In this document: positions 3 through 42,825 of the stretch, one piece after another
How the letters are laid out: each line of letters opens with the position of its first letter
Numbering within the stretch: position 1 is the first letter of the stretch
Assembly: GCA_001563915.1 (NCBI GenBank)
Contig: LKMP01000006.1
Span: forward strand, 1-42,825
Direction: 5' to 3'
DNA: 42,825 nt
Origin: Nanohaloarchaea archaeon B1-Br10_U2g21
GTDB lineage: Archaea; Nanohalarchaeota; Nanosalinia; Nanosalinales; Nanosalinaceae
The notes under the pieces: generated by a model
What the model was told of the DNA's origin: nothing
The model's input: the letters and a program-made list of their open reading frames with translations, nothing else
Databases searched by the model: none
Translations under genes and position numbers: made by a program

Positions 3-869
3 ACACTTGAACAAGGCCTCAACGCAGAAACAGTCATAGAAAACCCTGAAATAGAGCTTTACTGGGACACCATACCCGAAAACCCTGAAAATCCATTCAT
101 AATCGGCCTCGATATAGAAGATTTGGCGGATTTTGCATCAACTTACAACGGAGAACACCACTGGCAGCAAATCGCATCTACACAATTAAATCAAAATACA
201 CTAGCGCTGTTGAATCACGAAATAAATCAGATGGCAGAACGAGAATTGGAAAAAGAGAGACACAAATACTCTGACTTCACGACACGCACTGTAATGCACG
301 ACACTAAAAATATCCTGCAAACTTTAGAAGGCTACATAGAACTATACCAAGAAACAGGCGATGAAAAACACTTCCAAACTGTATTAAACGCTAGTAAAAA
401 CATTCAAACCCTATATGAAGAACTTGAAGCACTCCAAAAACTCTATGAAGAAGACCATAAAACCCATATCAACGCATATGACATACTACAAGAAATAAAC
501 AGCAAACTAGAATTCAGAGAAGACCAGAAAAGCAAAAGCATCCATCTACCTGAAAATAACACACACTACACCTTCCATTCAAGTCCATTAATAGAAAGAA
601 TGATGTACAACCTCTTAGACAACAGTCTAGAACATGGACAAACAGATCCCGAAATAGACATGTACAAAGAAAACGGCCATATAAACATAGACGTATACGA
701 TAACGGAGAAATACCACAATCTATATGGGATAACTGGGGCTCAGAACACAACGGTATCGAAGACTATCCAGGCACAGGAACATTCCTAATAGGAGAAATA
801 GCCCAAAGAAACAATATCCGGATAGAGCCTTTAGAAAATGGCTACCGAGTTAAAATACCGGAAACATAG
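3..869 (+). CDS. Sensor histidine kinase (HisKA + HATPase_c), 5'-truncated by window edge
   Basis: Frame is open from position 3. H-box-like VMHDTKNILQTLEGYIEL, N-box MYNLLDNSLEHG, G1-like VYDNGEIP, G2-like PGTGTFLIGEIA. Confidence 0.8.
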   Translation, partial: TLEQGLNAETVIENPEIELYWDTIPENPENPFIIGLDIEDLADFASTYNGEHHWQQIASTQLNQNTLALLNHEINQMAERELEKERHKYSDFTTRTVMHDTKNILQTLEGYIELYQETGDEKHFQTVLNASKNIQTLYEELEALQKLYEEDHKTHINAYDILQEINSKLEFREDQKSKSIHLPENNTHYTFHSSPLIERMMYNLLDNSLEHGQTDPEIDMYKENGHINIDVYDNGEIPQSIWDNWGSEHNGIEDYPGTGTFLIGEIAQRNNIRIEPLENGYRVKIPET

Positions 870-1081
870 CCCAAATTCTTAGAAATAAATCTTTCTCTAA
901 ATTTTTTCGAATACTGTTTAACATGACTAGTCTCCTCACGAACCCATAATACTCTAGTGAGCTCTCAGACATAATTCCTCCGCCTCATAGAATCCCTCCG
1001 AACACTCTAACTGTTTCTCTCAGCACCCCGGACTTAACTGATCAAGACCTATCATAACCAAACTGAATGAACAATAACACT

Positions 1082-1663
1082 TCAACCATCCAAACTACCA
1101 TAAATCCTATCCGAACCAAAAGAACCTCTGATAACATCAGAACTATACGCCATAAAAGTAGGAACACGAATACCCATAGCCTCTAAACCCAGATCAACAA
1201 CCTCAGTCTCATCATAACTACCAAAACCAATTTCAACACTTGAACCTCTAGGCGTTCTCCACTCATCCTCCTCCATCCTATCAAAGAACGGATGAGAAAC
1301 CTCCTCCATAAACTCTCCATACTCATTAGCAACCCTCAACCTCAACGGCTCAGGCCTCGGAAAACTATCATACTCCACCTGTCTAAAAGAGTCCCTCCCC
1401 ACATGAAGCTCAGCCTCATAACCATTATCTAAAAACATTTCATCCATTAAATAAAGCTCATCTGCAAAAGCATTAGACATCAAAATAGTCTGCCACTTAT
1501 CAATATCTGGCCCTGAAACAACACGAGAATCACCTATTTCAGAGTACAACTGATCCGACAAATCTCGTCTATTTGACACATACTCAACTTCATTTACCGA
1601 CATCTCAGATAGTTCTTCAATACCTATATCCCCAAAATTTTCAATGTCAAATTCTGCATCCAC
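1082..1663 (-). CDS. Hypothetical acidic protein
   Basis: 193-aa ORF with D/E-rich composition like neighbouring genes; no motif recognised. Confidence 0.65.
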   Translation of the reverse strand: MDAEFDIENFGDIGIEELSEMSVNEVEYVSNRRDLSDQLYSEIGDSRVVSGPDIDKWQTILMSNAFADELYLMDEMFLDNGYEAELHVGRDSFRQVEYDSFPRPEPLRLRVANEYGEFMEEVSHPFFDRMEEDEWRTPRGSSVEIGFGSYDETEVVDLGLEAMGIRVPTFMAYSSDVIRGSFGSDRIYGSLDG

Positions 1664-1717
1664 TCTTTTTTTTCCACCTCCTGCACGTACTCTTTAAAAC
1701 AAACTCAAAATGTTAAA

Positions 1718-2575
1718 TCAATAACTATTGGCCGGCCCCTTATGATTTCCAAAAGCAGCTACATCCAGCTCCAATACTCCATCAACAAAATCATAATCAT
1801 TCGAAACAACAATATTTGAGTCTCTATCCGTACCACTCAACCTAAACTTGTAACTATTATTACCAGCTTTTCTCTCAGGCGTAATAGGCATATTTGGATC
1901 CACCAATTGATCCGATATATTATAATCTTCCTCAAAATCTCTGTAAAACTCTGCAATATCATTTAACTGTTTAAACAAGTTTTCAGCAGCATCATTATCA
2001 GACTCATACTTAGGAACCCCTTTAACACTGTCAAAACCTTTCAACAGCACATCCCCTCCTAAGGCCTCAAAACTCCCCGAATTTATCACATCGCCATACA
2101 GATCCGCATAGTTGCCGCCGAACCCTACATCAACGTCATTAGAGCTGACAACTCTTGACTCTCTTTGAACTGCTTCAACAATCGCCATGTGATGATTAAA
2201 TGGCATAGCACTAACCTCACTAGTAGAAATATTACCGCTTTCATCGATCAAGCTCATTGAGCCACCGTCTCCTAAAGCTGCTAAAACATATGTTGTGGTA
2301 CCTTTAGAATCCTGTACATCGACTAATCCATTCTGAAAATCAATTCCTACTCTATCAACACCTACTGCTTCAGGTGCGCTCAGTCCATCAACAATTGTAT
2401 CCCATTCTGATCTAGTGGATTGATTTTCAACAATACCAGGATTTAGTGAAAGTGCTTCTCCGAAAATGGATTTTCCTTCTAACTTTACGTTAGGGTTGAT
2501 GTATGCGAAATCGTCTGAGTCTGAGGGACTCTCAACTTCTAGCCAGCGACCATCAACCATATATGTTACTATCAC
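1718..2575 (-). CDS. Hypothetical protein, possible C-terminal RelE/ParE-like domain
   Basis: 285-aa acidic ORF; C-terminus YKFRLSG...IVVS...LDVAAFGNHK loosely follows the RelE pattern. Confidence 0.6.
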   Translation of the reverse strand: MIVTYMVDGRWLEVESPSDSDDFAYINPNVKLEGKSIFGEALSLNPGIVENQSTRSEWDTIVDGLSAPEAVGVDRVGIDFQNGLVDVQDSKGTTTYVLAALGDGGSMSLIDESGNISTSEVSAMPFNHHMAIVEAVQRESRVVSSNDVDVGFGGNYADLYGDVINSGSFEALGGDVLLKGFDSVKGVPKYESDNDAAENLFKQLNDIAEFYRDFEEDYNISDQLVDPNMPITPERKAGNNSYKFRLSGTDRDSNIVVSNDYDFVDGVLELDVAAFGNHKGPANSY

Positions 2576-2788: not shown

Positions 2789-2792
2789 TAGT

Positions 2793-5588
2793 TTACTCGA
2801 CTACTTGTCCAGTCTCTGTTGAGATTGTGACTTCGTCTCTGCCTTCTAGGTCAGCTTCATGGTCACGGTAGTTAGCTAGGAATTCTCCAGCAGCTCTTGT
2901 ATCTTCACCAGAGTGTCCGGCTACAATAAGTGCTTGCTGTCCATCGTTGAATCCATCAACTAACTGAACCATTCCTTCGCCTTCGGTGTAATCCTCAGCA
3001 GGCATGGTTCTGTTCTCTTCAACTAAGTCAGAAACCAAACTGTTTACGTTTGGTCCTCCAACTAGGACTAAGTGATCGTCACTTGTGATGTGCTCTGAAT
3101 CATCATCAGAGTCTAGGTTTCCAGCAGCCCAACTGTAAGTAGGCGTCTGTGAAGTGACTGATCCATCTGTAGCTCCTCCTTCAGCGGATAGAGCTCCATC
3201 TGTTCCTGTCATAGCCATTCCTGACGTGGATTGAACTGCAGGAACGTTCACTGTGATGTCTCCTTCGTCGTCAGTGTCGTGTGTGATGTAGGATCCGTAA
3301 ACTGTGTATCCTACTTCTACATCATCGTCACTGTCAAGTTCATGACCATAGAAGTCTTCAGAGTCTTCATCAGTGTAGTAGAAGTCTACTTCATTGATCT
3401 CTCCATTGTCGCCATCTTCAGCTTCAAAGACGAAAGCGTCTTCATCGCCGTCATCGTCTTCAGGCTGGACATAGATAGCTGCAGGGCCTTCTTGTCCTGT
3501 TTCTCCGTCTTGCTGAGTAACAACTAGATAATCATCGTCATCTCCATCTTCTACTCCGGTTCCATCTGCGTTACCTAAGCCATACTCAATTGATCCTGCC
3601 GTAAACGTATCATCGCCTTCTTCGTCATCTAGATTTACTGTCTCTGTCTCATCAATTCCGCTCGGAAGCTCTACATAATCTCCTTCTAAATCAGCTACAG
3701 CAACCGGCGCTGCGAATGCTGCTGCTCCGTCTGCTTCTGTGTAGAATGCGGAGAATACTTGCTGAGCGTAATCTTCTTCTGTTCCGAGCTCATCAGCTGC
3801 GTCATCTCTTACGAAGCTCACTGCTTCTTCTTCAGCTTCATCTTCGTTGTAGTAGACTTTGACATCAAATCTTAGACCTTCGATTCTCTCAGAATCGAGA
3901 GTATAAGATACGATATTGTCGCCGCCGATTTCACCTTCGTCTTCTACTTCTCCAATTCCGTCTTCTTCAATTGTAACTGTGTTGCCCGTGAATACATTTT
4001 CAAGCTCGAGCTCAAGCTCTCCATCATCATCGTCATCAACGATGTCTTCGTCTAGGTCTGCGAATAAGCTTGTGATTTCGTACATTGCTGCATCATCGTC
4101 CTGGTTCAGGACTACGAAATCGTCTTCGTCAAGTTGCTGTCCTTCGTAGGTTGCGATTGTTTCTTCTTCGCCACCTAGAGATACTGTATCGTCTCCGTCG
4201 CCTTCAGCGAAAGTGATTGTCTCTGTTTCTCCGTCATCGTTTGTTACTGTGAATTCTGCGTCATCTTCGCTTGCTTCTGCGTTTACGGTTTCTGCGTAGT
4301 CTTCTGCTGCGTCAGCGTTTAGGCCTCCGTAGTGGAATTCTAGTGCGCCGTTGAATACAGGTTCTACGTATGAGTCTTCTGCTTCTACGATGTTTTCATC
4401 GTTTTCTTGTGCTCCGAATCCGAATGTCATTCCGTCGATTGCTGCAAATTCTTGATCATCAGCATCGTCTAGGGATACATCGATTCCTCTGACTCGGTCT
4501 TCGTTGACTTCTACTCTTCCGTCTTGGATGGATAGTTCGTCAGTTCCGATTCCGAACTGTACTACGCCATCATTGTCTCCGAAGTCGTAGATGTTTCTTA
4601 CTCTGACATCGCTTCCTGATACTCTTACTGTGTCTCCTGATTCGACTGTTTCTAGTGATCCGTCTACTCTGACTGTTGCTTCGTCTGAGCCTGAAACGGA
4701 TACTACTTCAAATGTGTGTTCGTTTCCGTCTACTGTGATTGTTTCTTCTTCTCCTCTTTCGACATCAAAGTCTTCTGCGTCGCCGTATAGGATTAGTTCA
4801 GAGTCGTCTGAGTCGTCTGAGAATGTGTAAGTTTCTCCGAAGAGTGTGATTTCTTCTCCGTCTTCTACCCATTCGTCAGCTTCTTCGTTCAGGTCATCAT
4901 CGCTTCCTGCTGCGTGGAAGTCTAGTGTCTGTGAGAAGTCTACTGTGGCGGTGAAGAGATTGTTTTCTGAGCCTGCGTCTGCGTCAACGTCTCCTCTTGA
5001 TGGTACTTCGATGTATTTCGCTGGATCATCTAGATCTCCTTCATCTGAGTCGAAGGATTGTGGTCTTTCTCCCATTGCTACTTCGAAGTCTGTGCTAATT
5101 TCTTCTCCGTCTTCTGATGAGAATGTTGTTGATTCTAGAACGTCTAGGTCTCTGTCGTCTAGTGTTGATTCTCCATCATTTGTGTACTGGTTCAAGAATA
5201 GGTGGCTTCTTTCTCTGTTTAGTGTTACTCCGTTTTCTGCACTCCATTCTCCTACTCCGCCTTCTACGGATACTGTTTCTTCGGTTTCTGTGAATGCTGC
5301 GTTGCCGAGTGATCCGGCTACTTCGATTCCAGATACAACGTCAAGTGTTGATACTGGTTCTCCATCTTCTGCTGTCTCTCCGACAACAACTGATGAAGTT
5401 ACTTCTCCGTCTTCATCTACGAACGGATGAGGATAGTCTCCTAAGTCTCCACTGGACCCATTGTCCTGTGCTGCTGCGAAGGCTGCGCCTCCTGCAACTG
5501 TTGCACCGACCAATAGTGCGGAACCTAGAAGGGTTCTTGTGTTATTCTTAAGTTTTTTGATTATTTTCATGGTTGTGTTTGTCACCAT
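2793..5588 (-). CDS. S-layer protein (S_layer_N / S_layer_C, Methanococcus type)
   Basis: 931 aa, extremely acidic, signal peptide; N-terminal YPHPFV..VVVGETA..DVVSGIEVAGSL and C-terminal LVLVGGPNVNSLV..ALIVAGHSGEDTRAA motifs. Confidence 0.9.
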   Translation of the reverse strand: MVTNTTMKIIKKLKNNTRTLLGSALLVGATVAGGAAFAAAQDNGSSGDLGDYPHPFVDEDGEVTSSVVVGETAEDGEPVSTLDVVSGIEVAGSLGNAAFTETEETVSVEGGVGEWSAENGVTLNRERSHLFLNQYTNDGESTLDDRDLDVLESTTFSSEDGEEISTDFEVAMGERPQSFDSDEGDLDDPAKYIEVPSRGDVDADAGSENNLFTATVDFSQTLDFHAAGSDDDLNEEADEWVEDGEEITLFGETYTFSDDSDDSELILYGDAEDFDVERGEEETITVDGNEHTFEVVSVSGSDEATVRVDGSLETVESGDTVRVSGSDVRVRNIYDFGDNDGVVQFGIGTDELSIQDGRVEVNEDRVRGIDVSLDDADDQEFAAIDGMTFGFGAQENDENIVEAEDSYVEPVFNGALEFHYGGLNADAAEDYAETVNAEASEDDAEFTVTNDDGETETITFAEGDGDDTVSLGGEEETIATYEGQQLDEDDFVVLNQDDDAAMYEITSLFADLDEDIVDDDDDGELELELENVFTGNTVTIEEDGIGEVEDEGEIGGDNIVSYTLDSERIEGLRFDVKVYYNEDEAEEEAVSFVRDDAADELGTEEDYAQQVFSAFYTEADGAAAFAAPVAVADLEGDYVELPSGIDETETVNLDDEEGDDTFTAGSIEYGLGNADGTGVEDGDDDDYLVVTQQDGETGQEGPAAIYVQPEDDDGDEDAFVFEAEDGDNGEINEVDFYYTDEDSEDFYGHELDSDDDVEVGYTVYGSYITHDTDDEGDITVNVPAVQSTSGMAMTGTDGALSAEGGATDGSVTSQTPTYSWAAGNLDSDDDSEHITSDDHLVLVGGPNVNSLVSDLVEENRTMPAEDYTEGEGMVQLVDGFNDGQQALIVAGHSGEDTRAAGEFLANYRDHEADLEGRDEVTISTETGQVVE

Positions 5589-5910: not shown

Positions 5911-6175
5911 TAAGATTGTTTTTCAGCCAGAAACAGGCCCAAATAATCATTTTTTGACTTAGAAATATCTTCTGCACAGCCTTCACATAAAACGTATTTT
6001 GAGAGCTCTGTTTTGTTCATAGCGCCCCAAAAGTTTTTTGTTAAGTGAAAGAATAGTTAAGATTCTGTTTTAACTTGTTTTTAGGCCTTGAGTTTTGTTC
6101 GGTTTCTGTCTAACAGCTCTTACATGAGTTATTGAGGATTATATATTTTTGACAGTATATTTTGTCAACCTTTAG

Positions 6176-10084: not shown

Positions 10085-10241
10085 TTTAGACTCTTTCCTC
10101 GATTTTTGTCAGGCCTGCCTGACTTAGACTACTTTGATAGCCGCTTTTTTAAAATTTTCGAGGTATAATTACGCAGCTAGTGTTTATAGAGCCACTGCAT
10201 GTCTTGGTTATTTATTTTTTCATTACTATTTGTTGTAACTA

Positions 10242-16788: not shown

Positions 16789-16789
16789 T

Positions 16790-20640: not shown

Positions 20641-20670
20641 AGAGTTATAGCTAGAAAGAGTTTGAGGCCT

Positions 20671-28910: not shown

Positions 28911-28950
28911 ATCTAGTTTTTTGAGGCCTAGTTTTTTCCATTTAACTGTT

Positions 28951-30076: not shown

Positions 30077-32671
30077 CTATTCTTCTACTCGCCAAGTCTT
30101 TACAAAGTCATTAGATGCTTCATCGACTCCTTCCAAATAATCTATTCCATACCCATCCATAAGATACATTCTTGCAATATTCGTTTCCTTAATATCTCTA
30201 GGTACGATTACTAGTCTTGCTTGCTGTCCAAACACCTGGCTTCTATCAAGAGTAAAGTATGGATCCTCAGCAATACAGTACTCTGAGTCTCCATCTTCAA
30301 ATTCTTGCACTCCATTCTCTGTAATAATGCAGCTCGCAGACATCCTTTGCCCGTCCATAGTTTGGATAGTAGCTGCTCCACTTATATCGGCAGAAGCTTC
30401 AGTTCTGTTTATAGGCGCGTATATTTCTGCAGGCAATCCTTCAATACTTCCAAAGAATGGTACTACTTCTGACTCTCCATCCGAAGTTACTACATCTTCT
30501 AGAGCCCCCATTGTCTGAGCTTGTGACCATGAGTCAAAGTTTTCATTGTCCTCTCTAGCAATCTGACTTACTGCAGCATATTTACCAATCATAGTATTAT
30601 CCAGCACTATATAGTCTACAGAATGCTTCTCTAAAAGATCTTGATCGTCCTCAGGATCATCAGATGTGAAGTATCTTGCAATCGGGAAGTTAACTCTCTC
30701 ATCGCTTGTGTAATAGTTATAGTTACCTCCATCCGCCACACTTGCAGAACGGCCAATCGTCTGGAAATGGTATCCATAATCCCACCATGACAAAACTACC
30801 GTCCCTTCATCAGCTTCTTCTCTCAAGTAGTCCAGATTCTCCATCCAGGCCTCATTAGGCTCTCCACCTATGCCTTGAACGGCCGCCCACCCGGCAAAAA
30901 TATTCACTGATAACAGTGCAATAATTCCCACGCCTAGTATCAACGTCCTCAGTTTGTCCCCATTGATATCAAGTTCGCTGAAATCCAAAGATTGGATTCT
31001 ACGGTATGCTATCGAGAATGTATATCCTGCTCCAAGAGCGACCGGGAATGCAGCCAAGAATATTAAACGGTTTCTTGCCGTTGCGCCTAACAAATTAGTG
31101 ATAATCCAGAAAAATGCAAGGAATTGATACCACTCTACTTGGATTTCACGAGGCTTAAAGTCTTCTAAAAAGTATACTACTCCCAGTCCTAAAGTCGCTA
31201 TCCATAATGGGTACGCTGCGCCTCTAAGCACAGAAGACTGATCTTCTTGTCCAAAAGAGAATAATGTGGCGATTATAGCGGTAAATAGAAGAGACATAAT
31301 AGTGATTGATAATACAGAATCTTCGTCAAGATAAAACACAAGAACCGAAACTAGGCCTAGCATAATAAGTCCTAACGCTATTCCAGCTGTCGTATAGCCT
31401 CCAAAGAACCCTAAAAATGTTACACCCCATGCTGATACGACTCCAGCCAGAAGCCCATAGTATTTACGACCTTCTAAGACTTCCTCTACTAACCCATAGC
31501 TTTTGGCAATCATTAAGATTGCTGAAACAAGAAGGAATGGAATTGAAAGGAAAACTAGTGTCCAAGGACCTACCAGCGCAGAAAGAATCTCTGCGCCCGG
31601 AAATATTTGATCAACAATTCCTGTACCAAGCTGAACTGTAAGTTCTCCTAGCCCTGGTGCTGCATCTTCTGCAACAGTTCCCGAAATAGTTCCTGCATCA
31701 GTCTGAGTTGCTCTACGATATATGCTGAAAGTTATATCTGCTAAGAAGCTAGAATAAAGTGGAGATAATGCGAGCGCCAGACCTCCTGTAATGTACATTG
31801 ATGGTGAAAAGTACTGTAAATAATCTTCCTTCAACAAGTTTAGCTCTTCTACAAGGAAACGAGCCCATAGCAGTGTAAGCATACCGACATTCAGGTAAAT
31901 ATACATATGGTCGAACCAGAATCGTCCGGAATTAAATATAGATGCGAAAAATGCGGCTATTAAGACTGTAGGCGTGAATGCAGCAACAAGATTTTCTATA
32001 TCTCTGTCAATTAAAAGCATGAAACCGACTGTCATCGGATACAGAAGCCAAAGTACTCCGCTTCCACCCCAAGTGATTGTGAATATTCCTAATGTGAGGC
32101 CTGCAAGTATGCCGTAAATCCAGTCTTTTTTCTTCCACGCTATAGTGAAGAAGAGAAGGGATAGTAGCATGAAGAATGTTCCTATGGCTTCTTTCTCGAA
32201 GAATCCTGCTGAGCTTCTAAACATTGCTCCCGGAATTACTGCTATGAAGAATGCTGCTCCAAGGCCTGTGTATTTATCGAACATTTCTTTTCCAAGGTAA
32301 TACATTGCTATTGCGCCAAGACCGGAGAAAAGAGGTTGTATCCAGTAACCAAACTCTAGATAAGAGTCAAAAAGTAGAAATCCTCCTGCCCAGTAAAGTA
32401 TTGCCGGTATTACAAGATTACCCATATGGTCTAAATGCAGCGGGTAAGCATATGGGAAATATCTTAGGAAATCAAGTTCTGGAAGTCCTCCTGTATATGC
32501 TATTTGCTGTGAGCTTCGGAACAGATTATACGGATCCATTGCAGAAAGATATTCAATAGTTCGTGTAGGATAGTATCGGAAGCCTACTGCTATGAAGAAA
32601 ATTGCTAGTAAAAACGGGGCGACCCAGTACTTTTCGGCCAGTTTTTTCGGATTTCTTTCTGAAATATTCAT
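30077..32671 (-). CDS. aglB: Oligosaccharyltransferase AglB (STT3)
   Basis: MDPY, RSSAGFFEKE, TVAE, SWWDYG, DK-type motif DNTMIGK. Confidence 0.95.
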   Translation of the reverse strand: MNISERNPKKLAEKYWVAPFLLAIFFIAVGFRYYPTRTIEYLSAMDPYNLFRSSQQIAYTGGLPELDFLRYFPYAYPLHLDHMGNLVIPAILYWAGGFLLFDSYLEFGYWIQPLFSGLGAIAMYYLGKEMFDKYTGLGAAFFIAVIPGAMFRSSAGFFEKEAIGTFFMLLSLLFFTIAWKKKDWIYGILAGLTLGIFTITWGGSGVLWLLYPMTVGFMLLIDRDIENLVAAFTPTVLIAAFFASIFNSGRFWFDHMYIYLNVGMLTLLWARFLVEELNLLKEDYLQYFSPSMYITGGLALALSPLYSSFLADITFSIYRRATQTDAGTISGTVAEDAAPGLGELTVQLGTGIVDQIFPGAEILSALVGPWTLVFLSIPFLLVSAILMIAKSYGLVEEVLEGRKYYGLLAGVVSAWGVTFLGFFGGYTTAGIALGLIMLGLVSVLVFYLDEDSVLSITIMSLLFTAIIATLFSFGQEDQSSVLRGAAYPLWIATLGLGVVYFLEDFKPREIQVEWYQFLAFFWIITNLLGATARNRLIFLAAFPVALGAGYTFSIAYRRIQSLDFSELDINGDKLRTLILGVGIIALLSVNIFAGWAAVQGIGGEPNEAWMENLDYLREEADEGTVVLSWWDYGYHFQTIGRSASVADGGNYNYYTSDERVNFPIARYFTSDDPEDDQDLLEKHSVDYIVLDNTMIGKYAAVSQIAREDNENFDSWSQAQTMGALEDVVTSDGESEVVPFFGSIEGLPAEIYAPINRTEASADISGAATIQTMDGQRMSASCIITENGVQEFEDGDSEYCIAEDPYFTLDRSQVFGQQARLVIVPRDIKETNIARMYLMDGYGIDYLEGVDEASNDFVKTWRVEE

Positions 32672-32755: not shown

Positions 32756-33715
32756 TTGTTTACCGTGGAGCGGATTGATGAGTTAGAGAGAAATTTGAGC
32801 AAGAGATATACTCGGCTCTATGAGAACCATGAACGGTATTTTTTCATACCTTTAGTGCTCATACTTCTAGCAGCTTCAGTCTTATTCTATAACTTTGCTA
32901 CTACCGGCGAATTCCTTGAGAAAGGTACTGATTTCGCTGGAGGCACAGAAATAACGTTTGAAGTTGAAGGAGAATTTAGCTCTAGCGAAATAGAGCAAGT
33001 ATTCGCTGACGCAGACCGTTCAGGAACCACTGCATTAACCCAAGATACTGGGGAACGAGAACTCTTACTAGTTCAAGTACCTCCTCCAGACATGACTCAG
33101 GATGAAGCCGCAGAAATAATGGAAGATGCAGGCTATGAAGTTGAAATAGAAGGATTCAACTCAATATCTGCGGCAGTTTCCGGACAGTTCTTCCAGCAAG
33201 CCCAGTTTGCATTCATACTAGCATTCACGATAATGAGCATAATAATTTTCTACGCATTCAAAAACTTTACACCTGCAGCAGCAGTAGTATTTGCAGCAGG
33301 AGGAGATATCATGATAGCAGCAGCCGGAATGTCCTTACTAGGAATACCTTTGACTCTCGGATCGCTCGCTGCACTATTGATGCTTATAGGTTATTCTGTT
33401 GACACCGATATCGTACTATCTACGCGCGTATTGAAGATGAATAGGGGCTCTAACAGATCTCGTATGTGGAGTTCTGTCAAAACAGGATTGACAATGAGTT
33501 CGGGAGGAATAGCAGGATTTACACTACTATATCTTGTTTCTTACTCTATTGTCGGACCTTCAGAACTCTCAATAATCGCCTCAGTAATGGTTATAGGCCT
33601 TATGGCGGATATACCTCTTACTTGGCTTGGTAACACGGTCATTTTGAAGAAATATGTTGAAGGCGATTTTGAAAATCTTGATAACTTTACGAAGTGGTCG
33701 TTTTGGAGATCTTAA
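32756..33715 (+). CDS. secF: Protein translocase subunit SecF
   Basis: GTDFAGGTEI, LAALLMLIGYSVDTDIVL. Confidence 0.93.
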   Translation: MFTVERIDELERNLSKRYTRLYENHERYFFIPLVLILLAASVLFYNFATTGEFLEKGTDFAGGTEITFEVEGEFSSSEIEQVFADADRSGTTALTQDTGERELLLVQVPPPDMTQDEAAEIMEDAGYEVEIEGFNSISAAVSGQFFQQAQFAFILAFTIMSIIIFYAFKNFTPAAAVVFAAGGDIMIAAAGMSLLGIPLTLGSLAALLMLIGYSVDTDIVLSTRVLKMNRGSNRSRMWSSVKTGLTMSSGGIAGFTLLYLVSYSIVGPSELSIIASVMVIGLMADIPLTWLGNTVILKKYVEGDFENLDNFTKWSFWRS

Positions 33716-36119: not shown

Positions 36120-37121
36120 ATGGATACACAAAAAACCTTTCTAGCAGGTACAGCCGCCCTTCTAACACTCATTTCCTTAACGATGTTAGCACCATTTCTG
36201 GCGTATATACTAACTGCAATAATCCTAGCTTTTGTTTTAAGACCTCTACAGATTAAGCTTGAGCCTTACATAGGAGGAACTATTTCCTCAGCACTTCTAA
36301 TACTAGCGTTCATCTTAATTATAGCTCTACCTTTTGCATTAGCTGTGGGCACAGTAGCCACGGACGCACTAGAACTTGTAGACGAGATAGAAGACATTGA
36401 AGTAATAGATCTCGGCGAACTTGAACAGACAATATTTGATTTAACTGGACAAGAGATAGATTTAGAATCCGAGCTACAGGAACTACTTGAAAGATTCACT
36501 GCAGTGGCTGTGGGCGGCATTTCCCAGATTGTTGGCGTAATAACATCTGTAGCAATAGGCCTGCTGATAATGATATTTTCGTTATTCTACATGCTTAGAG
36601 ATGGAGATAGACTCTACAACTGGATTAGGTCAGTTACACCAGTGTCAGAAAAAATACAGAAAGATTTGTATTCTCGAGCCGAGATAATGACAAATGCAGT
36701 TCTCAAAGGGCATGTGCTGGTGGCAATAGTAGAAGGTCTCGTAGGCGGTCTAGGACTGTATTTAGCAGGAGTACCTAACTTTGCATTCTGGACCTTCATT
36801 ATGATACTTCTTTCCTTCATCCCTGTAGTCGGAGCATTCTTAGTCTGGGCTCCTGCGAGCCTGTATTTATTTTTAATACAGCAGCCGGTTGAAGGAGTAT
36901 TCTTGTTCTTATATGGAGCAATTATAATTTCCTTTATAGACAATGTGATGAGGCCTTATCTTGTTGATAGTCGAGCGGAACTGCATCCTGCCGCAATACT
37001 TATCGGTGTTCTTGGAGGCGTTTATGTTTTCGGAGCTATAGGACTATTCATAGGTCCTGTAATCTTTGGATTAACAAAGGCAGTGCTTGATGTATTCAAC
37101 GCTAACTACAAGGATTTATGA
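36120..37121 (+). CDS. AI-2E family transporter
   Basis: LFYMLRDG, LSFIPVVG, DNVMRPYL..LHP..IGVLGG..FG..GLFIGP. Confidence 0.92.
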   Translation: MDTQKTFLAGTAALLTLISLTMLAPFLAYILTAIILAFVLRPLQIKLEPYIGGTISSALLILAFILIIALPFALAVGTVATDALELVDEIEDIEVIDLGELEQTIFDLTGQEIDLESELQELLERFTAVAVGGISQIVGVITSVAIGLLIMIFSLFYMLRDGDRLYNWIRSVTPVSEKIQKDLYSRAEIMTNAVLKGHVLVAIVEGLVGGLGLYLAGVPNFAFWTFIMILLSFIPVVGAFLVWAPASLYLFLIQQPVEGVFLFLYGAIIISFIDNVMRPYLVDSRAELHPAAILIGVLGGVYVFGAIGLFIGPVIFGLTKAVLDVFNANYKDL

Positions 37122-37154: not shown

Positions 37155-37517
37155 CTATCTGTGTTCGCTGTAAGGATCTTCTATTCTCTCAATATCATCA
37201 GGCCTGTAAGGAAAAGATATTTCCAGTACTTTTGCGACCATCGAATCAATGTTCTGTAATTGGTGTTTCTCTCTACTTCTGATTATTTGAGCCTTTCCTT
37301 TCTTGAGCTCTTTCATTTTGTCCTCTAATCGGAGAGTTATATTTCCCTCTTCAAGATATATGATATCTGCCTGAGTGTCGTGAGAAGAGTAAGAAGTCAT
37401 CTCATCAGAGTTAATTACTAGTCTTCTGATTCCAAGCATTCCACGTTCTCCCCCAATATCTACCTGGGTAACAAGTATCTGCTCTTCATACCCCCAAGGC
37501 TTCTCAATCCTTCCCAT
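37155..37517 (-). CDS. Cupin protein (mannose-6-phosphate isomerase type II C-terminal-like)
   Basis: IEKPWGYE, HQLQN, LEIS..DIERIEDPY. Confidence 0.8.
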   Translation of the reverse strand: MGRIEKPWGYEEQILVTQVDIGGERGMLGIRRLVINSDEMTSYSSHDTQADIIYLEEGNITLRLEDKMKELKKGKAQIIRSREKHQLQNIDSMVAKVLEISFPYRPDDIERIEDPYSEHR

Positions 37518-37553: not shown

Positions 37554-38090
37554 CTAAAAATCCTGAAACTGCTTATCTATAAGAAAGTGCTTTGTAGGTT
37601 CAGTAAGCTCGATTTTTTTTAACTCAGATGGATCGACCCATCGGAAATCGGAGGCCTCATCATTTGTGCTGACTTCTACTGGTTCCTCTACAGTCTTAGT
37701 GTACAAATACCAGTAATGATAATCTGCGCCTCTCCTACAGGGATCTTCAACTTTTTCCTCTAATTTAAGTTCAGGAGCAGAAATTTCTAGATTTGTTTCC
37801 TCTTTAACTTCTCTTATAATAGCTTTTTCAGGATTTTCTCCTTCTTCCAAATGACCTGCTGGAATAGTATATTTGAAAGGATATTTTCTCCGGTTTAGCA
37901 ATAATATCTTACCGCTTTTTACAATTACCGCCCCAACAGACACATGAACAATCTCTCCTTCCTCATTGTAGTGTTCTAATCCCTTGTTAAGAATCATCCT
38001 TGAGTTTTTATGGCCTTCTGAACAAATATAGTATTCCTTCCCGTCTTCAGTCTTAATTTGAGTCTCTTTACCACAATCCATGCATTTCAT
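37554..38090 (-). CDS. NUDIX hydrolase with N-terminal zinc ribbon
   Basis: GHLEEGENPEKAIIREVKEETNL Nudix box; CMDC..CSEGH; start set to MKCMD. Confidence 0.9.
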   Translation of the reverse strand: MKCMDCGKETQIKTEDGKEYYICSEGHKNSRMILNKGLEHYNEEGEIVHVSVGAVIVKSGKILLLNRRKYPFKYTIPAGHLEEGENPEKAIIREVKEETNLEISAPELKLEEKVEDPCRRGADYHYWYLYTKTVEEPVEVSTNDEASDFRWVDPSELKKIELTEPTKHFLIDKQFQDF

Positions 38091-38685
38091 CTTTCTCATC
38101 CTCATAATAGCTAAGTTTAGGGAAATCTATATCCTCTACATGCGAATATAGCTGATCTCCTTGTAGATCCCATTTGCCTACAACTGTTTCCTGAAGCTCT
38201 GGATCGCCTCTGGCAACAATTAACTGGCTTCCTGGCTCGCGTGATTGGATACCGTGATACATACCTGCAGGAATAATTAAAGGCTCATCAAACTCGATAA
38301 TAGTAAACCCTGATTCTGATTCTTTGGATGCCACCTCCATCTCAAAATTACCTGTTGGAACGTAAAGCTCAGGAGTATTGTGTACGTGTGTAAGCTCAGG
38401 ATATGATCTCAACTCTTCAGAAAATCGATATTTTAACTCTACTGGGGAATTATCCGAATTCATGAAATAGAAGCCATCGCTGCTTCTATCATCTCTTTCA
38501 ACAGTGTTTTCGTTTCCAAGAATTCTTGCATCAATGTAAAGGCCTTCTATACCAGGATCTCTACTCAAAACAACGTAATCTCCCTCTTCTATGTATCCAT
38601 TATCTTCCATTGCAACGAAACCCGGCTCCTCTAGGATTTCTCTTGCTTCATCCCATTCTCCAAAATGCGTGACTTCAGCAAACAT
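38068..38685 (-). CDS. Hypothetical protein with cupin-like motifs
   Basis: HVHNTPELY..IIPAGMYHGI; start set to MFAEV. Confidence 0.7.
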   Translation of the reverse strand: MFAEVTHFGEWDEAREILEEPGFVAMEDNGYIEEGDYVVLSRDPGIEGLYIDARILGNENTVERDDRSSDGFYFMNSDNSPVELKYRFSEELRSYPELTHVHNTPELYVPTGNFEMEVASKESESGFTIIEFDEPLIIPAGMYHGIQSREPGSQLIVARGDPELQETVVGKWDLQGDQLYSHVEDIDFPKLSYYEDEKDEMHGLW

Positions 38686-39929: not shown

Positions 39930-40610
39930 TTAGTTTGAGCCATTGACCTCTTCTACTTCAAGCTTCAAATTGTAGAATTTCCCATCCTTTTCAAAAACAC
40001 CGAGGCCTTTATCACCATAAGACAAACCTCTCAAAAGACCTATAGCCTCTTCTAAAGTCATTTCTTCGTTAAGATCAAGCCGTGATACCTCATCTAAATC
40101 TTCTCTATGATGCATAGATCCCTTCTCAAGGTCTTGCTCTTCGCCTTCTTTGCCTGCGTAAATATTAGGCCAATTCTTCTTAAACAGTTCTGCTTGAGCA
40201 GCCATCAAACGCTCCCGCAAACTAGAAGCAGTGTCATCAGATTTCAACTCTACTTTTTTCCTTGCAATTACTGGTCCAGTATCAAGACCCTTGTCCATGT
40301 AGTGTATGGCTACTCCTGCAGGACTTCCATCAATTATAGGCCATATATATGGATAAGCGCCTCTGTTAAAAGGCAGATAAGACGGATGGAGATTCACTAT
40401 ACCTTTTTCAGGAATTTCTAGTATTTCCTCAGGCACAATATGTTCAAAGCCTGAAGATATTACTAGATCAGGCCTCAACTCTTTAACCAGGTCTAATTGT
40501 TCTTTTTCAGTTAGTAAAGCCTTTACTTCAACATCACTCCTATTATTAAGCCACTCGTAGACTTCTTCACCTGCATCATTTATCCCTAGAAAGACTGCTT
40601 CGACCGTCAT
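39930..40610 (-). CDS. Formyltransferase (probably nucleotide-sugar N-formyltransferase)
   Basis: VNLHPSYLPFNRGAYP, GVAIHYMDKGLDTGPVI. Confidence 0.85.
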   Translation of the reverse strand: MTVEAVFLGINDAGEEVYEWLNNRSDVEVKALLTEKEQLDLVKELRPDLVISSGFEHIVPEEILEIPEKGIVNLHPSYLPFNRGAYPYIWPIIDGSPAGVAIHYMDKGLDTGPVIARKKVELKSDDTASSLRERLMAAQAELFKKNWPNIYAGKEGEEQDLEKGSMHHREDLDEVSRLDLNEEMTLEEAIGLLRGLSYGDKGLGVFEKDGKFYNLKLEVEEVNGSN

Positions 40611-40660
40611 TAGTATAGTTAGAATAATGAAAAAATATTAAACCCAAGCTTTGGAGAAAA

Positions 40661-41407
40661 ATGGCTTTAATGTTTGATCTTTCAAAATTATACAAGATGC
40701 ACGGCCGAAAACGAATCAAATATGAATACAAGAAAAGGTCTTTCCAAGAGTTCCTTAAATGGCTTTATCATGGGCTAAAAGCTCGTATGGCGGTTAAGCT
40801 CCATAGTTTGTTATCAGACATATTGGGAGAAGAGAGATACTTTAATGCTCTAAAAAGGCTTCGGTGCCGAAAGATAAGAGAAGATGAGTTCATAGAGCTA
40901 AGGAAAATAGATCCTGACACAGTGGAATATGTTTCGCCAACACGAGAAAAACAGAAATGGTACTCTACCGGCAAACTGAAAAACGGAGGTTGGGATAAAG
41001 GTCTAGATAGATACAATGATCTTCCTTTTCATCGCGCAATGATAAAGAGAGTAAAAGAAGATATTAAGTGGGATGAAATTGAAGAAGTTCAAGAGGCTAG
41101 GAAAGGAGGAATAAAATGGCCAGGAAAGCCGTATAACGTAGACAGAGACATTCAAAAGACTGAAGAATTATTGGAGAATATTAAGGAGAATGGTTACAGG
41201 TCTCAAGAAGAAATTAGAAACATTTCTTACGAAGAAGCAGAGAAGAACTGGGATTTTAAGGCCTTAAATGAAGTATGTGTAGATCTTGACAGAAATGGCG
41301 ACCCTTTATTTGTAGACGGACGGCATAGATTAAGTATTGCAAAAATTCTTGGAATAGATGAAATACCTGTTCGTATAGTTATGAGGCACAGAAACCTCAA
41401 AAAGTAA
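40661..41407 (+). CDS. ParB/Srx N-terminal-like domain protein
   Basis: LLENIKENGY..DGRHRLSIAKILGIDEIPV. Confidence 0.75.
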   Translation: MALMFDLSKLYKMHGRKRIKYEYKKRSFQEFLKWLYHGLKARMAVKLHSLLSDILGEERYFNALKRLRCRKIREDEFIELRKIDPDTVEYVSPTREKQKWYSTGKLKNGGWDKGLDRYNDLPFHRAMIKRVKEDIKWDEIEEVQEARKGGIKWPGKPYNVDRDIQKTEELLENIKENGYRSQEEIRNISYEEAEKNWDFKALNEVCVDLDRNGDPLFVDGRHRLSIAKILGIDEIPVRIVMRHRNLKK

Positions 41408-41443
41408 CAGCTTATTAGTACCTCCAAAGACCGAGTGTAAATA

Positions 41444-42825
41444 ATGACCGAGTCCAAAGTTGTGAAATCTCTTTTCACTGGGGGCGCCATAATTTTCGCA
41501 GGGATGATAATCTCCAAGCTTTTTGGGTTGCTTTACCGAGTAGTAGTTGGTAGAGCGCTCGGACCAGAAGAATATGGCATAATCTCGGTTATGCTTGCAG
41601 TTTCCTCTGTGATAGGAGCCTTAGCATACATAGGAGTGCCCAAAGGAGTCCAGAAATACGTATCAGAGTATAGAGGTAAAAATGACATAGGCAGTCAAGT
41701 TGGTGTGCTTCGCACAGGACTCATACTGGTAACAATACCATCATTCTTAACTGGTATAGCGCTTTTTCTACTAGCTCCTTGGATTTCTACAGAAATATTT
41801 AATGAGCCGCGAGCCATATGGCCGCTAAGATTTCTAGCAATTATACTTCCTTTACGAGCCTGGAGAAAAACTATGATTAAGACCACAGAAGCCTATGAAA
41901 AAATGCAGTATAGAGTCTATACTAACTATATTTATGGAAATGTCCTAAAGGTAATACTCACAGTATTCCTCGTAATAATGGGCTACGGCTATCTTGGCGC
42001 AGCTTTCGCATACGTATTTGCTTGGGGATCTGCAATCATACTTGCAATAATATTCACATACAGAGTTTTACCTGAGACCTTTCAACTCTCGAGGAGTCCA
42101 GGAGCACAATATCGGAAGCTCTTCCACCACTCTTGGCCGCTGTTTGCGGCAGGTTTGTTTGCATCAATCGCCGGATACATAGACACGTTTATGCTTCAGG
42201 CCTTCCTTGGCAGCGAAGAAGTAGGACTATACAACTCAGCCTATCCTTTCGCAGCAGTAATATCATCTGCAGGAGGAGTATTTGGATCAATCTATCTGTC
42301 AAATGCCTCTAAACTCTATGGACAGGACAAAAAAAATGAAATGACTGATGCCTATAGGCTCGTTGTGAAATGGATTGCATTAGTATCTCTTCCAATGTTC
42401 ATGATAATGGTAGCGTTTCCACATGCAGTGCTTCAAATCTTTGGTAGCGAATACCTTGGAATGGGTAACGTTCTTAGAGTACTTGCTTTCGGCTTCTTGT
42501 TGTCGGCCATGATAGGTCCTGTAGGCAAAGTAATACAGGCTATAGATAAGACCAGGTACAAACTATACCTTACTCTGTTTATAGGGTGTTCAAACATATT
42601 GCTCAATTACTTGTTGATTCCTATTTATGGAATAATGGGTGCTGCAGTCGCCACCACTCTTACATTTGCAATAGCTTTCATACTTAAAATCTTAGTAATG
42701 GAGTATCTTGCTGATATACAGCCATTTCGTCCGATTATCCTTAAAATAATAACTAGTTCAGGTCTTGCAGCGCTAGCAGTTTTCTTAATAGCTTTACTGG
42801 CGTTTGAAACAACGCCATTATGGTA
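41444..42825 (+). CDS. Oligosaccharide flippase (Wzx/MOP superfamily), 3'-truncated
   Basis: MTESKVVKSLFTGGAIIFAG..GRALGPEEYG, IDTFMLQAFLGSEEVGLYNSAY, LNYLLIPIYGIMGAAVAT; runs off the window. Confidence 0.9.
   Translation, partial: MTESKVVKSLFTGGAIIFAGMIISKLFGLLYRVVVGRALGPEEYGIISVMLAVSSVIGALAYIGVPKGVQKYVSEYRGKNDIGSQVGVLRTGLILVTIPSFLTGIALFLLAPWISTEIFNEPRAIWPLRFLAIILPLRAWRKTMIKTTEAYEKMQYRVYTNYIYGNVLKVILTVFLVIMGYGYLGAAFAYVFAWGSAIILAIIFTYRVLPETFQLSRSPGAQYRKLFHHSWPLFAAGLFASIAGYIDTFMLQAFLGSEEVGLYNSAYPFAAVISSAGGVFGSIYLSNASKLYGQDKKNEMTDAYRLVVKWIALVSLPMFMIMVAFPHAVLQIFGSEYLGMGNVLRVLAFGFLLSAMIGPVGKVIQAIDKTRYKLYLTLFIGCSNILLNYLLIPIYGIMGAAVATTLTFAIAFILKILVMEYLADIQPFRPIILKIITSSGLAALAVFLIALLAFETTPLW

Follow-up and report, generated by a model that had tools for sequence, protein, structure and literature searches.

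To our knowledge, the highly iterated palindromes (HIPs) of cyanobacteria are still unexplained. According to PMC4390886, alternate cyanobacterial HIPs are found together with methyltransferases that have the corresponding specificity, and in Elhai's model the palindromes saturate at roughly one per kb. Xu, Lawrence and Durand concluded that the positional conservation of HIP1 indicates selection, not biased repair, and its one-off variants are also conserved (PMC5861425). Restriction-modification systems specific for the word AGGCCT are described from bacteria in PMC12128166. In the literature, we found no published description of iterated AGGCCT in nanohaloarchaea.

Here we analyzed a 42,825-nt stretch of DNA (the window), for which an initial annotation had claimed at least 41 AGGCCT copies in a DPANN archaeon. 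Judged from its protein sequences and gene order, the DNA is nanohaloarchaeal (DPANN), as proposed: S11 shares 98% identity with its counterpart in a Nanohaloarchaea MAG, and approximately 5 kb around the S11 gene are syntenic.

Abundance and placement of AGGCCT in the window

A pattern search identified exactly 41 AGGCCT sites, each where the initial annotation had placed it, which corresponds to 0.96 sites per kb. The GC content, estimated by eye at about 38%, was measured as 40.0%. Base composition (zero-order) predicts 6.2 sites, and the 2nd-order and 3rd-order Markov models predict 11.9 and 18.0. None of 100 dinucleotide-preserving shuffles reached 41 (mean 8.47, sd 2.57, max 15). Synonymous-codon shuffling within genes gave 10.0 sites (sd 2.8) vs the 37 observed in CDS, and a stringent shuffle, in which protein sequence, codon usage and codon-junction dinucleotides were held fixed, gave 14.6 (sd 3.1) vs 36; the observed number was reached in 0/1000 shuffles in both cases. 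AGGCCT ranked first among the 64 palindromic hexamers and, under synonymous shuffling, first among the 2080 strand-collapsed hexamers (z 9.0, as compared to 6.3 for the next). The analysis confirmed that the abundance of AGGCCT in the window is far beyond what base composition or protein coding would produce.

Of the 107 GGCC sites in the window, 41 belong to AGGCCT, and the remaining 15 NGGCCN words have both-strand counts of 0–15 each. Two sites are embedded in the longer word CTAGGCCTAG, namely 28194..28199 in the Ogg-like glycosylase gene 27854-28705 (-) and 31353..31358 in the AglB/STT3 gene 30077-32671 (-), both in frame 2 (L-G-L). These extensions, pointed out initially, do exist, but with a both-strand count of 4 vs 2.7 predicted from shorter words they show no excess.

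As first described, the sites are located in genes on both strands (37 sites) and in intergenic DNA (4 sites), and the density is alike inside and outside the called CDS. The intergenic sites are 6083..6088, 10111..10116, 20665..20670, just beyond the stop of 20671-21126 (-), and 28924..28929. Strands given here are those of the genes, the sites being unstranded, and sites within the segment 15280..20268 are described below. Eight coding sites are in frame 0 (AGG CCT, encoding R-P), including 1352..1357 in ORF 1082-1663 (-), 10461..10466 in ORF 10242-10595 (+), 25693..25698 in the M24 peptidase gene 25231-26226 (-), 36951..36956 in the AI-2E transporter gene 36120-37121 (+), 37200..37205 in the cupin gene 37155-37517 (-) and 40470..40475 in the formyltransferase gene 39930-40610 (-). 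Nine are in frame 1 (xAG GCC Txx), including 2062..2067 (E-A-L, ORF 1718-2575 (-)), 26321..26326 (E-A-S, ORF 26281-26577 (+)), 29361..29366 (E-A-Y, glycosyltransferase-4 gene 28951-30066 (-)), 30847..30852 (E-A-W, AglB/STT3 gene), 37652..37657 (E-A-S, NUDIX gene 37554-38105 (-)), 41259..41264 (K-A-L, ORF 40661-41407 (+)), 42198..42203 (Q-A-F, polysaccharide-biosynthesis/flippase gene 41444-42823 (+)) and 21362..21367 (Q-A-stop), which overlaps the stop codon of ORF 21360-22271 (-).

The other 20 coding sites are in frame 2 (xxA GGC CTx). Apart from those in CTAGGCCTAG and in the segment, they are 14..19 (Q-G-L, ORF 3-869 (+)), 4321..4326 (G-G-L, S-layer-like gene 2793-5588 (-)), 12855..12860 (T-G-L) and 13284..13289 (S-G-L) in ORF 11285-13723 (-), 14651..14656 (E-G-L, ORF 14587-15153 (-)), 22935..22940 (G-G-L) and 23262..23267 (R-G-L) in ORF 22328-23347 (-), 29483..29488 (L-G-L) and 29630..29635 (T-G-L) in the glycosyltransferase-4 gene, 32097..32102 (A-G-L) and 32262..32267 (T-G-L) in the AglB/STT3 gene, 33595..33600 (I-G-L, SecF-like gene 32756-33715 (+)), 36557..36562 (I-G-L, AI-2E transporter gene), 38540..38545 (E-G-L, ORF 38068-38739 (-)) and 40003..40008 (K-G-L, formyltransferase gene).

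The share of Gly-Leu sites (20/37) would suit an excess arising as a by-product of the preferred amino acids, codons or codon pairs (Gly-Leu, Arg-Pro, Glu-Ala-Ser), or of copies of a small repeat, as would the maximal-order (pentamer-based) Markov expectation of 33.1. This expectation is high because the model absorbs the word's own pentamers, which it merely mirrors; AGGCC and GGCCT are among the most over-represented pentamers of the window. The stringent shuffle contradicts the by-product explanation, and so do the sites themselves, which occupy every frame and also spacers, in contrast to the coding-driven word CTGCAG, which is in one single frame in 26/26 cases. GGC is moreover a minority Gly codon (0.20) except within AGGCCT, and no flank consensus is conserved around the sites. 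Based on frames and spacers, both codon-level shuffles and the flanks, the coding or repeat by-product is refuted, and we give it virtually no credence. The excess also withstood the refuting tests that the initial annotation had set.

AGGCCT in related contigs

Three Nanohaloarchaea contigs, L001, L002 and L003, contain 22 AGGCCT sites in 5455 bp, 40 in 11720 bp and 54 in 13209 bp, respectively. The pooled 116 sites, as compared to 7.4 expected, amount to 15.7 times the expectation, with 86 sites in CDS and 30 in 6590 bp outside CDS. The density of 3.4–4.1 per kb (approximately 3.8 per kb overall) is about four times that of the window, which is a weak case of the iteration. An Aenigmatarchaeota locus showed no excess (7 sites vs 5.5 expected). 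A 1.95-kb stretch of L003 is without AGGCCT and could be foreign.

The initial annotation had considered a bias centred on GGCC. In the three relatives, all nine one-mismatch classes had observed/expected ratios of 0.96–1.59 (1.17 for AGGTCT and 0.99 for AGGCTT), vs 15.7 for the exact word; GGCC was rejected as the unit, which is the whole hexamer.

AGGCCT has reshaped peptide usage in the relatives, where 49 [KQE]A[FLSYCW] peptides were observed vs 24.3 expected, and 80 GL dipeptides vs 52.8. The word fills 85/135 (63%) of the permissive peptide contexts in the relatives and 35/140 in the window.

The proteome footprint, the dense lineage-wide occurrence in coding and non-coding DNA, the possibly foreign stretch of L003 and the decay in one lineage (see below) would all fit a self-recognition tag for DNA exchange, with preferred uptake or recombination of AGGCCT-rich DNA among nanohaloarchaea driving accumulation; once a lineage ceased to exchange DNA, its copies of the word would decay. 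Such a tag would be comparable to the uptake signals known from Pasteurellaceae and Neisseriaceae, and uptake sequences are likewise described as leaving a proteome footprint. However, known uptake sequences are 9–12 bp and non-palindromic, and with only 6 bp each site would discriminate poorly. The 73 kb examined contained no competence or uptake genes, and we found no literature linking nanohaloarchaea with uptake sequences. We consider an uptake tag unlikely.

Retention and apparent loss of sites

The window segment 15280..20268 (-), with genes for RpoD, S11, S4, S13, carbonic anhydrase, an ORF, PPIase and glyoxalase, is syntenic with L001 and was the basis for comparing gains and losses with the relatives. 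It contains 6 sites, as compared to 22 in the 5455-bp L001 contig. Site 16027..16032 in the ribosomal protein S11 gene (-) (frame 2, K-G-L) is common to all three relatives, 17237..17242 in the S13 gene (-) (frame 2, T-G-L) is common to L001 and L003, and both 19248..19253 in ORF 18807-19271 (+) (frame 0, R-P) and 19683..19688 in the glyoxalase-family gene 19663-20268 (-) (frame 1, E-A-S) are common to L001. The S13 gene also contains 17186..17191 (frame 2, L-G-L), seen in the window only, and the glyoxalase-family gene contains 20032..20037 (frame 0, R-P).

The alignments show that AGGCCT has been retained in the relatives across saturated synonymous divergence, with four-fold sites within the word identical in 22/23 comparisons among L001–L003 and in 0.32–0.46 outside it. 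This retention is what selection for the binding site of an abundant dimeric DNA-binding protein would produce; such a protein could give the chromosome or nucleoid its organization, or serve as a mark in its replication, repair or segregation, and methylation need not be involved. At RpoD column 508 the amino acid varies (K/Q/E-A-S) while AGGCCT is intact throughout, and at S13 column 128 the word is intact in L001, L003 and the window (K/T-G-L), with AGGTCT in L002. Sites in L001 and L002 are spaced more evenly than random (CV 0.69 and 0.67 vs 0.93–0.96; P=0.054 and 0.007), many short spacers contain a site, which also favors this explanation, and selection is the published conclusion for HIP1 (PMC5861425). 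On the other hand, even spacing is absent in L003 and in the window, all-or-none specificity for six bases is unusual for architectural proteins, and the one-mismatch words gain nothing, unlike the conserved one-off variants of HIP1. A density of about 4 sites per kb would imply thousands of sites, each very weakly selected, in a small-genome symbiont, and the window lineage persists at one quarter of the relatives' density. No candidate binding protein was identified. We regard this explanation as possible but doubtful.

In pairs with the window, four-fold sites within the word were identical in only 12/29 comparisons, which is the background level (0.32–0.52 outside the word). Where L002 and L003 both have AGGCCT (5 columns), L001 keeps 5/5 and the window 1/5. 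Among window hexamers with the other five positions matching, a non-C base is T in 13/25 cases at position 4 (baseline 0.21, P=0.0007) and in 7/11 at position 5 (P=0.025), whereas in the relatives it is T in 3/12 cases at position 4, equal to the baseline. Because its four-fold sites are at background and its variants are biased to C>T, the window seems to show a HIP-like word, common to the lineage, in the course of erosion. Upkeep of AGGCCT in the window lineage appears weak or gone, the 41 sites appear to be mostly relics, and lost sites appear to have turned mainly into C>T (G>A) variants.

The polarity, with the window losing sites, rests on a weakly resolved tree of S13, S4 and S11, in which the relevant split has a support of 56 and the root is not firmly placed. 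The window may instead represent a lower equilibrium, or an earlier phase, of the same process, the density of the relatives having been gained later or in parallel. Besides the uncertain root, at least one private window site (S13 column 179) agrees with this polarity, and at 63% saturation the sites common to the relatives could be convergent. A single loss is nevertheless more parsimonious than two or three gains under any rooting except on the window's own short branch, and a state of weak gain does not predict the C>T enrichment. The background level in the window of four-fold sites at the relatives' motifs also argues against late gain, as does the fact that 4/5 of the assessable window sites in the segment are common to L001. 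Late gain seems improbable.

A possible link to a DNA enzyme

Our preferred reading, which we hold tentatively, is that AGGCCT is a genome-wide, DNA-level iterated palindrome of a nanohaloarchaeal lineage, driven by a hexamer-specific enzyme and biased repair and eroding in the window; neither coding nor a repeat element nor a regulatory function would account for it. Since the complete hexamer is needed and words with one mismatch derive no benefit, AGGCCT would most likely be the target of a type-II-like DNA enzyme present in the cells, with a cytosine methyltransferase specific for the hexamer as the probable candidate. When active, this enzyme would skew the repair of mismatches or deaminated bases, or the choice of the strand to be repaired, toward making and keeping AGGCCT. 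The resulting molecular drive, possibly reinforced by selection, would resemble that proposed by Elhai for cyanobacterial HIPs. In the window lineage, the enzyme or its repair partner would have become weaker or disappeared. Precedents in favor are the methyltransferases matching alternate HIPs, the bacterial restriction-modification systems specific for AGGCCT, and a cultivated nanohaloarchaeon for which two Dcm-like methyltransferases are predicted, although SMRT sequencing, a poor detector of m5C, showed a single motif (PMC11001535, PMC10609329).

Several observations count against the enzyme reading. The one nanohaloarchaeal methylome considered gives GDGcHC and not AGGCCT (PMC11001535), for a species that may itself lack the word. 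Under a T:G-specific (Vsr-like) drive, T variants should be depleted most strongly, but the relatives are drained of A, G and T alike (T 3, A 5, G 4 of 53 at position 4; T 0, A 1, G 1 of 35 at position 5). The 3.8 sites per kb of the relatives exceed the saturation of about 1 per kb in Elhai's model. General GC-to-AT mutation bias would also yield C>T erosion, and GC at four-fold sites is 0.22 in the window vs 0.31 in L001. The positional-conservation argument of Xu, Lawrence and Durand applies to AGGCCT too, although at 63% saturation the same permissive positions, refilled independently, would look conserved as well. Genes for a methyltransferase, Vsr or a restriction enzyme were found neither among the 47 window ORFs searched with Pfam nor among 22 window ORFs, most of which had no Pfam match, searched with NCBIfam, nor among 31 scanned ORFs of L001–L003; this absence is weak evidence either way, because only 73 kb are covered.

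The term HIP1-like, already used in the initial annotation, is the best available description of AGGCCT, which resembles the highly iterated palindromes of cyanobacteria but is here archaeal and apparently decaying.

Excess of AGGCCT in the window

A pattern search of the window returned exactly 41 copies of AGGCCT, at coordinates identical to those of the 41 sites claimed in the initial annotation. The zero-order composition of the window (40.0% G+C) predicts 6.2 copies. In 100 dinucleotide-preserving shuffles the mean count was 8.47 (sd 2.57, maximum 15) and none of the 100 reached 41, corresponding to a 4.7-fold excess. Second- and third-order Markov models predicted 11.9 and 18.0 copies, respectively. 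The maximal-order Markov expectation of 33.1 is an unfair null because it is built from AGGCC and GGCCT, which are inflated by the hexamer and are among the most over-represented pentamers of the window. AGGCCT was the most over-represented of the 64 palindromic hexamers, which rejects restriction-site avoidance, and under synonymous shuffling it ranked first among the 2080 strand-collapsed hexamers, with a z-score of 9.0 compared to 6.3 for the next hexamer. No replacement word was found in the window; the next hexamers, AGACTG and CTGCAG, are frame-bound coding words.

The coding context of the sites was analyzed in the 47 ORFs called in the window and annotated with Pfam. Eight copies were located in frame 0 (AGG CCT, Arg-Pro), nine in frame 1 (xAG GCC Txx) and 20 in frame 2 (xxA GGC CTx, Gly-Leu), with the remaining four in spacers. 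Shuffling synonymous codons within genes gave an expectation of 10.0 (sd 2.8) for the 37 copies in coding sequences, a number reached in 0 of 1000 shuffles, whereas pooling synonymous codons across genes gave 7.8 and shuffling the codon order gave 7.0. The strictest shuffle, which fixes the protein, the codon usage and the dinucleotide at every codon junction, gave 14.6 (sd 3.1) against 36 observed, again with 0 of 1000 reaching the observed number, and leaves a 2.5-fold excess. A by-product of codon or dicodon usage is ruled out by these shuffles together with the presence of sites in all frames. The excess claimed in the initial annotation is thus present at the DNA level: neither its disappearance under dicodon control nor a restriction of the sites to one reading frame, the outcomes named there as counter-evidence, was observed. 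CTGCAG provides the contrast, with 26 copies in the window versus 9.5 expected from a first-order Markov model. All 26 are located in frame 1 of coding sequences (xCT GCA Gxx), and CTGCAG is therefore a codon-context word with no DNA-level signal.

The initial annotation had also considered a bias around GGCC, but the unit is AGGCCT itself. It accounts for 41 of the 107 GGCC sites in the window, while the other fifteen NGGCCN words have both-strand counts of 0-15 each (0 for GGGCCC). GGCC as the true unit was likewise rejected in two contigs from related Nanohaloarchaea, where GGCC sites without both proper flanks numbered only 0/29 (L001) and 2/51 (L002) and GGCC outside AGGCCT is at or below expectation. 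No flank consensus was found at ten positions on each side, with base frequencies close to background both in the window and in the related contigs L001-L003, which rejects a longer motif or a small dispersed (MITE-like) repeat; the feature is therefore a bare hexamer and not a repeat element. Of the proposed extension to CTAGGCCTAG, the two copies do exist, but their number is not above the prediction from shorter words. The RNA genes of the window are three tRNAs, none of which contains AGGCCT, and no other Rfam families were found in the window or in L001-L003.

Occupancy and conservation in related contigs

The gene content of the window is archaeal, as seen from the Pfam matches to an S13-S4-S11-RpoD cluster, AglB/STT3, an S-layer protein, NAC and SecDF. 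A single search of genome contigs with the window S11 ORF returned four loci. Three are contigs of Nanohaloarchaea metagenome-assembled genomes, with S11 identities to the window of 98% (L001), 88% (L002) and 87% (L003), and the fourth, L004 (63%), is from an Aenigmatarchaeota genome and served as the outgroup. L001 is syntenic with window positions 15280-20268 over eight genes with 53-99% protein identity. The nanohaloarchaeal S11 matches and this synteny confirm the source as a DPANN archaeon. Statements about the lineage as a whole refer to the three contigs and the window, compared with one outgroup contig.

Gene calls for L001-L003 were score-based. The PPIase, S13, S4 and RpoD genes in L001:345-4908 are overlapped by long antisense ORFs, and a longest-ORF rule selects these instead, so that ORF length is not a reliable basis for gene calls at this composition. 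With its listed TTG start, the window S11 ORF (15840-16334, minus strand) shares approximately 120 bp with the terminal part of the S4 gene. Its Pfam match starts from residue 42 and the S11 proteins of the relatives are 127-128 aa long; the true start is probably further inside the ORF. Two adjacent paralogous ORFs on the minus strand of the window (21360-22271 and 22328-23347) have weak, sub-threshold matches of coiled-coil type only (SMC/Rad50, SKA1, GCP), and a homologue is present at L003:2250-3182.

AGGCCT was far denser in the relatives than in the window. There were 22 copies in the 5455 bp of L001 (4.03 per kb), 40 in the 11720 bp of L002 (3.41 per kb) and 54 in the 13209 bp of L003 (4.09 per kb), as compared to 41 in the 42825 bp of the window (0.96 per kb) and seven in the 14008 bp of L004 (0.50 per kb). 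Dinucleotide shuffles of L001-L003 gave a pooled expectation of 7.4 for the 116 copies, a 15.7-fold excess, and for L004 the expectation was 5.5. At permissive positions, where the protein allows the word by synonymous choice, it was present in 85 of 135 cases in L001-L003 and in 35 of 140 in the window. By peptide, the filled positions in the relatives were 12/16 for Arg-Pro, 32/49 for [KQE]-Ala-[FLSYCW] and 41/70 for X-Gly-Leu.

All three frames were used in each relative (frames 0/1/2: 2/7/7 in L001, 7/10/14 in L002 and 3/16/20 in L003), and 6, 9 and 15 copies, respectively, were located outside called coding sequences. Densities were similar in the two compartments, with 30 copies in 6590 bp of non-coding DNA and 86 in coding sequences, and many short spacers contain the word. 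The shuffle that fixes protein, codon usage and junction dinucleotides gave 4.5 expected versus 16 observed in L001, 9.6 versus 31 in L002 and 12.6 versus 39 in L003. Peptides that can encode the word were themselves over-represented in the relatives, both [KQE]A[FLSYCW] (49 versus 24.3, z 5.3) and GL (80 versus 52.8, z 4.0), with a z-score of 1.0 for RP; in the window this imprint is weak (z 1.0-1.9). All nine one-mismatch classes had observed/expected ratios of 0.96-1.59 in the relatives and thus no excess; recognition is therefore all-or-none across the six bases. AGGCCT is a strand-symmetric, exact hexamer at the DNA level, which is near-saturating in a clade and alters proteins.

Some local features of the contigs were also recorded. 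A stretch of 1.95 kb at L003:4524-6477 has no AGGCCT, while the rest of the contig has approximately one per 200 bp. This stretch, which may have been acquired recently, has an unchanged GC content (0.476) and contains genes for an HxlR regulator and a DsbA-like thioredoxin as well as an ORF of 184 aa. At L001:2709 and L003:8804, AGGCCT is placed 12-13 nt upstream of a TTTATAAG box that precedes the S13 gene, and it is absent from the corresponding spacer of the window. The depleted tetranucleotides of the window were GATC (observed/expected 0.63), TCGA (0.64), TTAA (0.62) and CGCG (0.55), while CTAG was mildly low in the window (0.89) and lower in the relatives (0.52). In L004:1-14008, GATC (3 sites, 0.04) and CTAG (4 sites, 0.07) are nearly missing from 14 kb, a very strong avoidance of the type usually tied to restriction systems.

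To examine conservation, the shared genes were aligned by codon. Outside AGGCCT, four-fold sites were near saturation, with identities of 0.32-0.52 overall and 0.32-0.46 among L001-L003. Within AGGCCT, the four-fold sites of L001-L003 were identical in 7/8, 8/8 and 7/7 cases by pair (22/23), whereas those compared between relatives and window were identical in 6/15, 2/6 and 4/8 cases (12/29), which is the background level. The Fisher test gave P = 3e-5, a value that overstates independence, as the pairs share sites, and that comes from a small sample of 5 shared genes. At RpoD column 508 the residue varies (K/Q/E-A-S), yet AGGCCT is kept. Of five columns with the word in both L002 and L003, all five have it in L001 and one in the window (P = 0.048), where the other four columns read AGGCGT, AGGTCT, AGGATT and CATCTG. 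In the syntenic segment, 4 of 5 assessable window sites are common to L001.

Where the other five bases match in the window, a non-C base is T in 13 of 25 cases at position 4 (baseline 0.21, P = 0.0007) and in 7 of 11 cases at position 5 (P = 0.025), positions 4 and 5 being the two cytosines of AGGCCT. For the relatives, T accounts for 3 of 12 non-C variants, which equals the baseline. In a maximum-likelihood tree of S13, S4 and S11, L002 and L003 were grouped with a support of 89. The window and L001 both branch off close to the root, with very short branches, and their order has a support of only 56. Unless the root is placed on the branch of the window itself, the most parsimonious scenario is that the word was lost once, in the window lineage. 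The window has the longer branch of the two in this tree (0.028 versus 0.0017 for L001) and a lower GC content at four-fold sites (0.22 versus 0.31), with 75 GC-to-AT and 42 AT-to-GC differences between 15280-20268 and L001. Since the window is more AT-rich at these sites, general drift from GC to AT may account for part of the decay, and the AT shift and longer branch hint that mutation or repair has changed in its lineage. Judged from 5-8 genes and 30 kb of the relatives, the 41 copies in the window appear to be largely relics of a far denser ancestral state. As it is being lost from one lineage, the word is dispensable.

Comparison with other iterated words and candidate mechanisms

The pattern resembles the highly iterated palindromes (HIPs) of cyanobacteria. 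The best known of these, HIP1 (GCGATCGC), is described as a short GC-rich palindrome that is over-represented 15-fold or more, occurs in every reading frame as well as in non-coding DNA, is kept at orthologous positions past synonymous saturation, and has been lost or weakened in some lineages, symbionts included (PMC5861425, PMC4390886). In both the window and the relatives we observed a gross excess of a GC-rich palindrome, although the excess in the window by itself does not reach the 15-fold that is given as the lower bound for HIP1-rich genomes (PMC5861425), and sites in all three frames and in non-coding DNA. Retention above the synonymous background was found in the relatives but not in the window lineage. 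AGGCCT differs from HIP1 in being another word, of six bases rather than eight, in a DPANN archaeon rather than a cyanobacterium. Its density of approximately 3.8 per kb in the relatives compares with roughly 1000-2000 per Mb reported for HIPs (PMC4390886). One-off variants of HIP1 are reported to be conserved (PMC5861425), whereas those of AGGCCT show no excess. HIP1 proper, as GCGATCGC or a GATC-centred derivative, was rejected, as the word is AGGCCT and GATC is depleted in the window. HIP1 is further characterized by a periodic distribution at 10-90 kb. The iterated word varies by lineage also in cyanobacteria, with GGCGCC, GCCGGC, GCsGC, GGGATCCC and, in Synechococcus sp. PCC 6312, CAGGCCTG as alternate HIPs. 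The last of these contains AGGCCT and is reported as 14.7-fold over-represented at 0.37 per kb (PMC5861425). The flanks in our contigs are not C...G, and the unit is hence the hexamer with free flanks.

As the process that maintains the word, we tentatively favor drive by a resident, hexamer-specific cytosine methyltransferase, because exact six-base recognition is typical of type II methyltransferases and restriction-like enzymes and less so of architectural proteins. Such an enzyme would be resident in the lineage and act on AGGCCT, and its action would bias repair so that the word is created and retained, as in the model of Elhai for cyanobacterial HIPs. Alternate HIPs are reported to co-occur with methyltransferases of the same specificity (PMC4390886), and restriction-modification enzymes specific for AGGCCT exist (PMC12128166). 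Systems of this StuI type are present, for example, in Alcanivorax borkumensis SK2, and methylation can cover nearly all of the 1674 AGGCCT sites in one genome (PMC12128166). The exact six-base specificity is shared with our case; sites of such systems are usually avoided, however, while here the word is iterated. For one cultivated nanohaloarchaeon, two predicted Dcm-like methyltransferases are described, and the motif reported from SMRT sequencing is GDGcHC only (PMC11001535, PMC10266531), a method described as detecting m5C poorly (PMC10609329). A REBASE survey lists a single complete nanohaloarchaeal genome with one m5C methyltransferase gene (PMC10609329).

Several observations count against the methyltransferase model. 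No methyltransferase, Vsr or restriction folds were found by Pfam or NCBIfam in the 73 kb of the window and loci, where the sole repair gene encodes an Ogg-type glycosylase (27854-28705). In E. coli, very-short-patch repair by Dcm/Vsr raises CCWGG and lowers CTWGG, a modest bias from methyltransferase-linked repair. The excess of AGGCCT in the relatives is 15-fold, and T variants show no clear selective depletion there, with observed/expected ratios of 1.17 for AGGTCT and 0.99 for AGGCTT. In context, T was counted in 3/53 and 0/35 cases, small numbers in which A and G were as rare. The density in the relatives is also above the saturation of approximately 1 per kb in Elhai's model (PMC4390886).

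The main rival explanation, which we regard as rather doubtful, is that AGGCCT is kept by selection as a protein-binding site or for a role in chromosome structure. L001 and L002 lend it some support, as their sites are spaced more evenly than random by the local spacing CV, although no such evenness was seen in L003 or in the window. The positional conservation of HIP1 has been interpreted by Xu, Lawrence and Durand as selection for chromosome structure (PMC5861425).

A self tag resembling an uptake signal is a second rival, and an unlikely one. The uptake signal sequences of Pasteurellaceae (USS) and Neisseriaceae (DUS) are lineage-specific words found in both coding and non-coding DNA with a density of approximately 1 per kb or above; their accumulation, through molecular drive, marks the peptide usage of the proteome. 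They have an oriented, non-palindromic core of 9-12 bp that is read by an uptake receptor. The peptide imprint is shared by AGGCCT in the relatives; however, its conservation does not extend past the palindromic hexamer to a longer oriented core, and no literature was found that links nanohaloarchaea to uptake machinery or uptake bias. Similarly improbable, in our judgment, is that AGGCCT is a dense self mark which separates the nanohaloarchaeal chromosome from the DNA of the physically joined haloarchaeal host. With approximately 4 sites in each kb, the symbiont DNA could then be protected or recognized by a modification or binding system specific for the hexamer, while the DNA of the host would be broken down as a source of nucleotides, or DNA exchange would be limited to nanohaloarchaea. 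If true, the window lineage would have changed its handling of host or foreign DNA.

Implications

We found no report of AGGCCT or of any other iterated palindrome from archaea, Nanohaloarchaea included, in the full-text literature, in which few subscription journals are covered. The origin of HIPs in cyanobacteria, a problem for decades, is described as still disputed between a methylation-linked repair ratchet and selection for chromosome structure (PMC4390886, PMC5861425). A rich and a poor genome at about 95-99% ribosomal-protein identity are well suited for phylogenetic profiling of the responsible gene, which would make the question of origin directly testable, and digestion with StuI would be a cheap probe of the modification state of AGGCCT. 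The density of the word is also a strong compositional marker for nanohaloarchaeal binning and for the detection of foreign islands. If the pattern is genome-wide, it would represent an independent HIP case in a DPANN archaeal symbiont with a tiny genome, in which a six-base word denser than HIP1 bends protein sequences and is being lost by a close relative.
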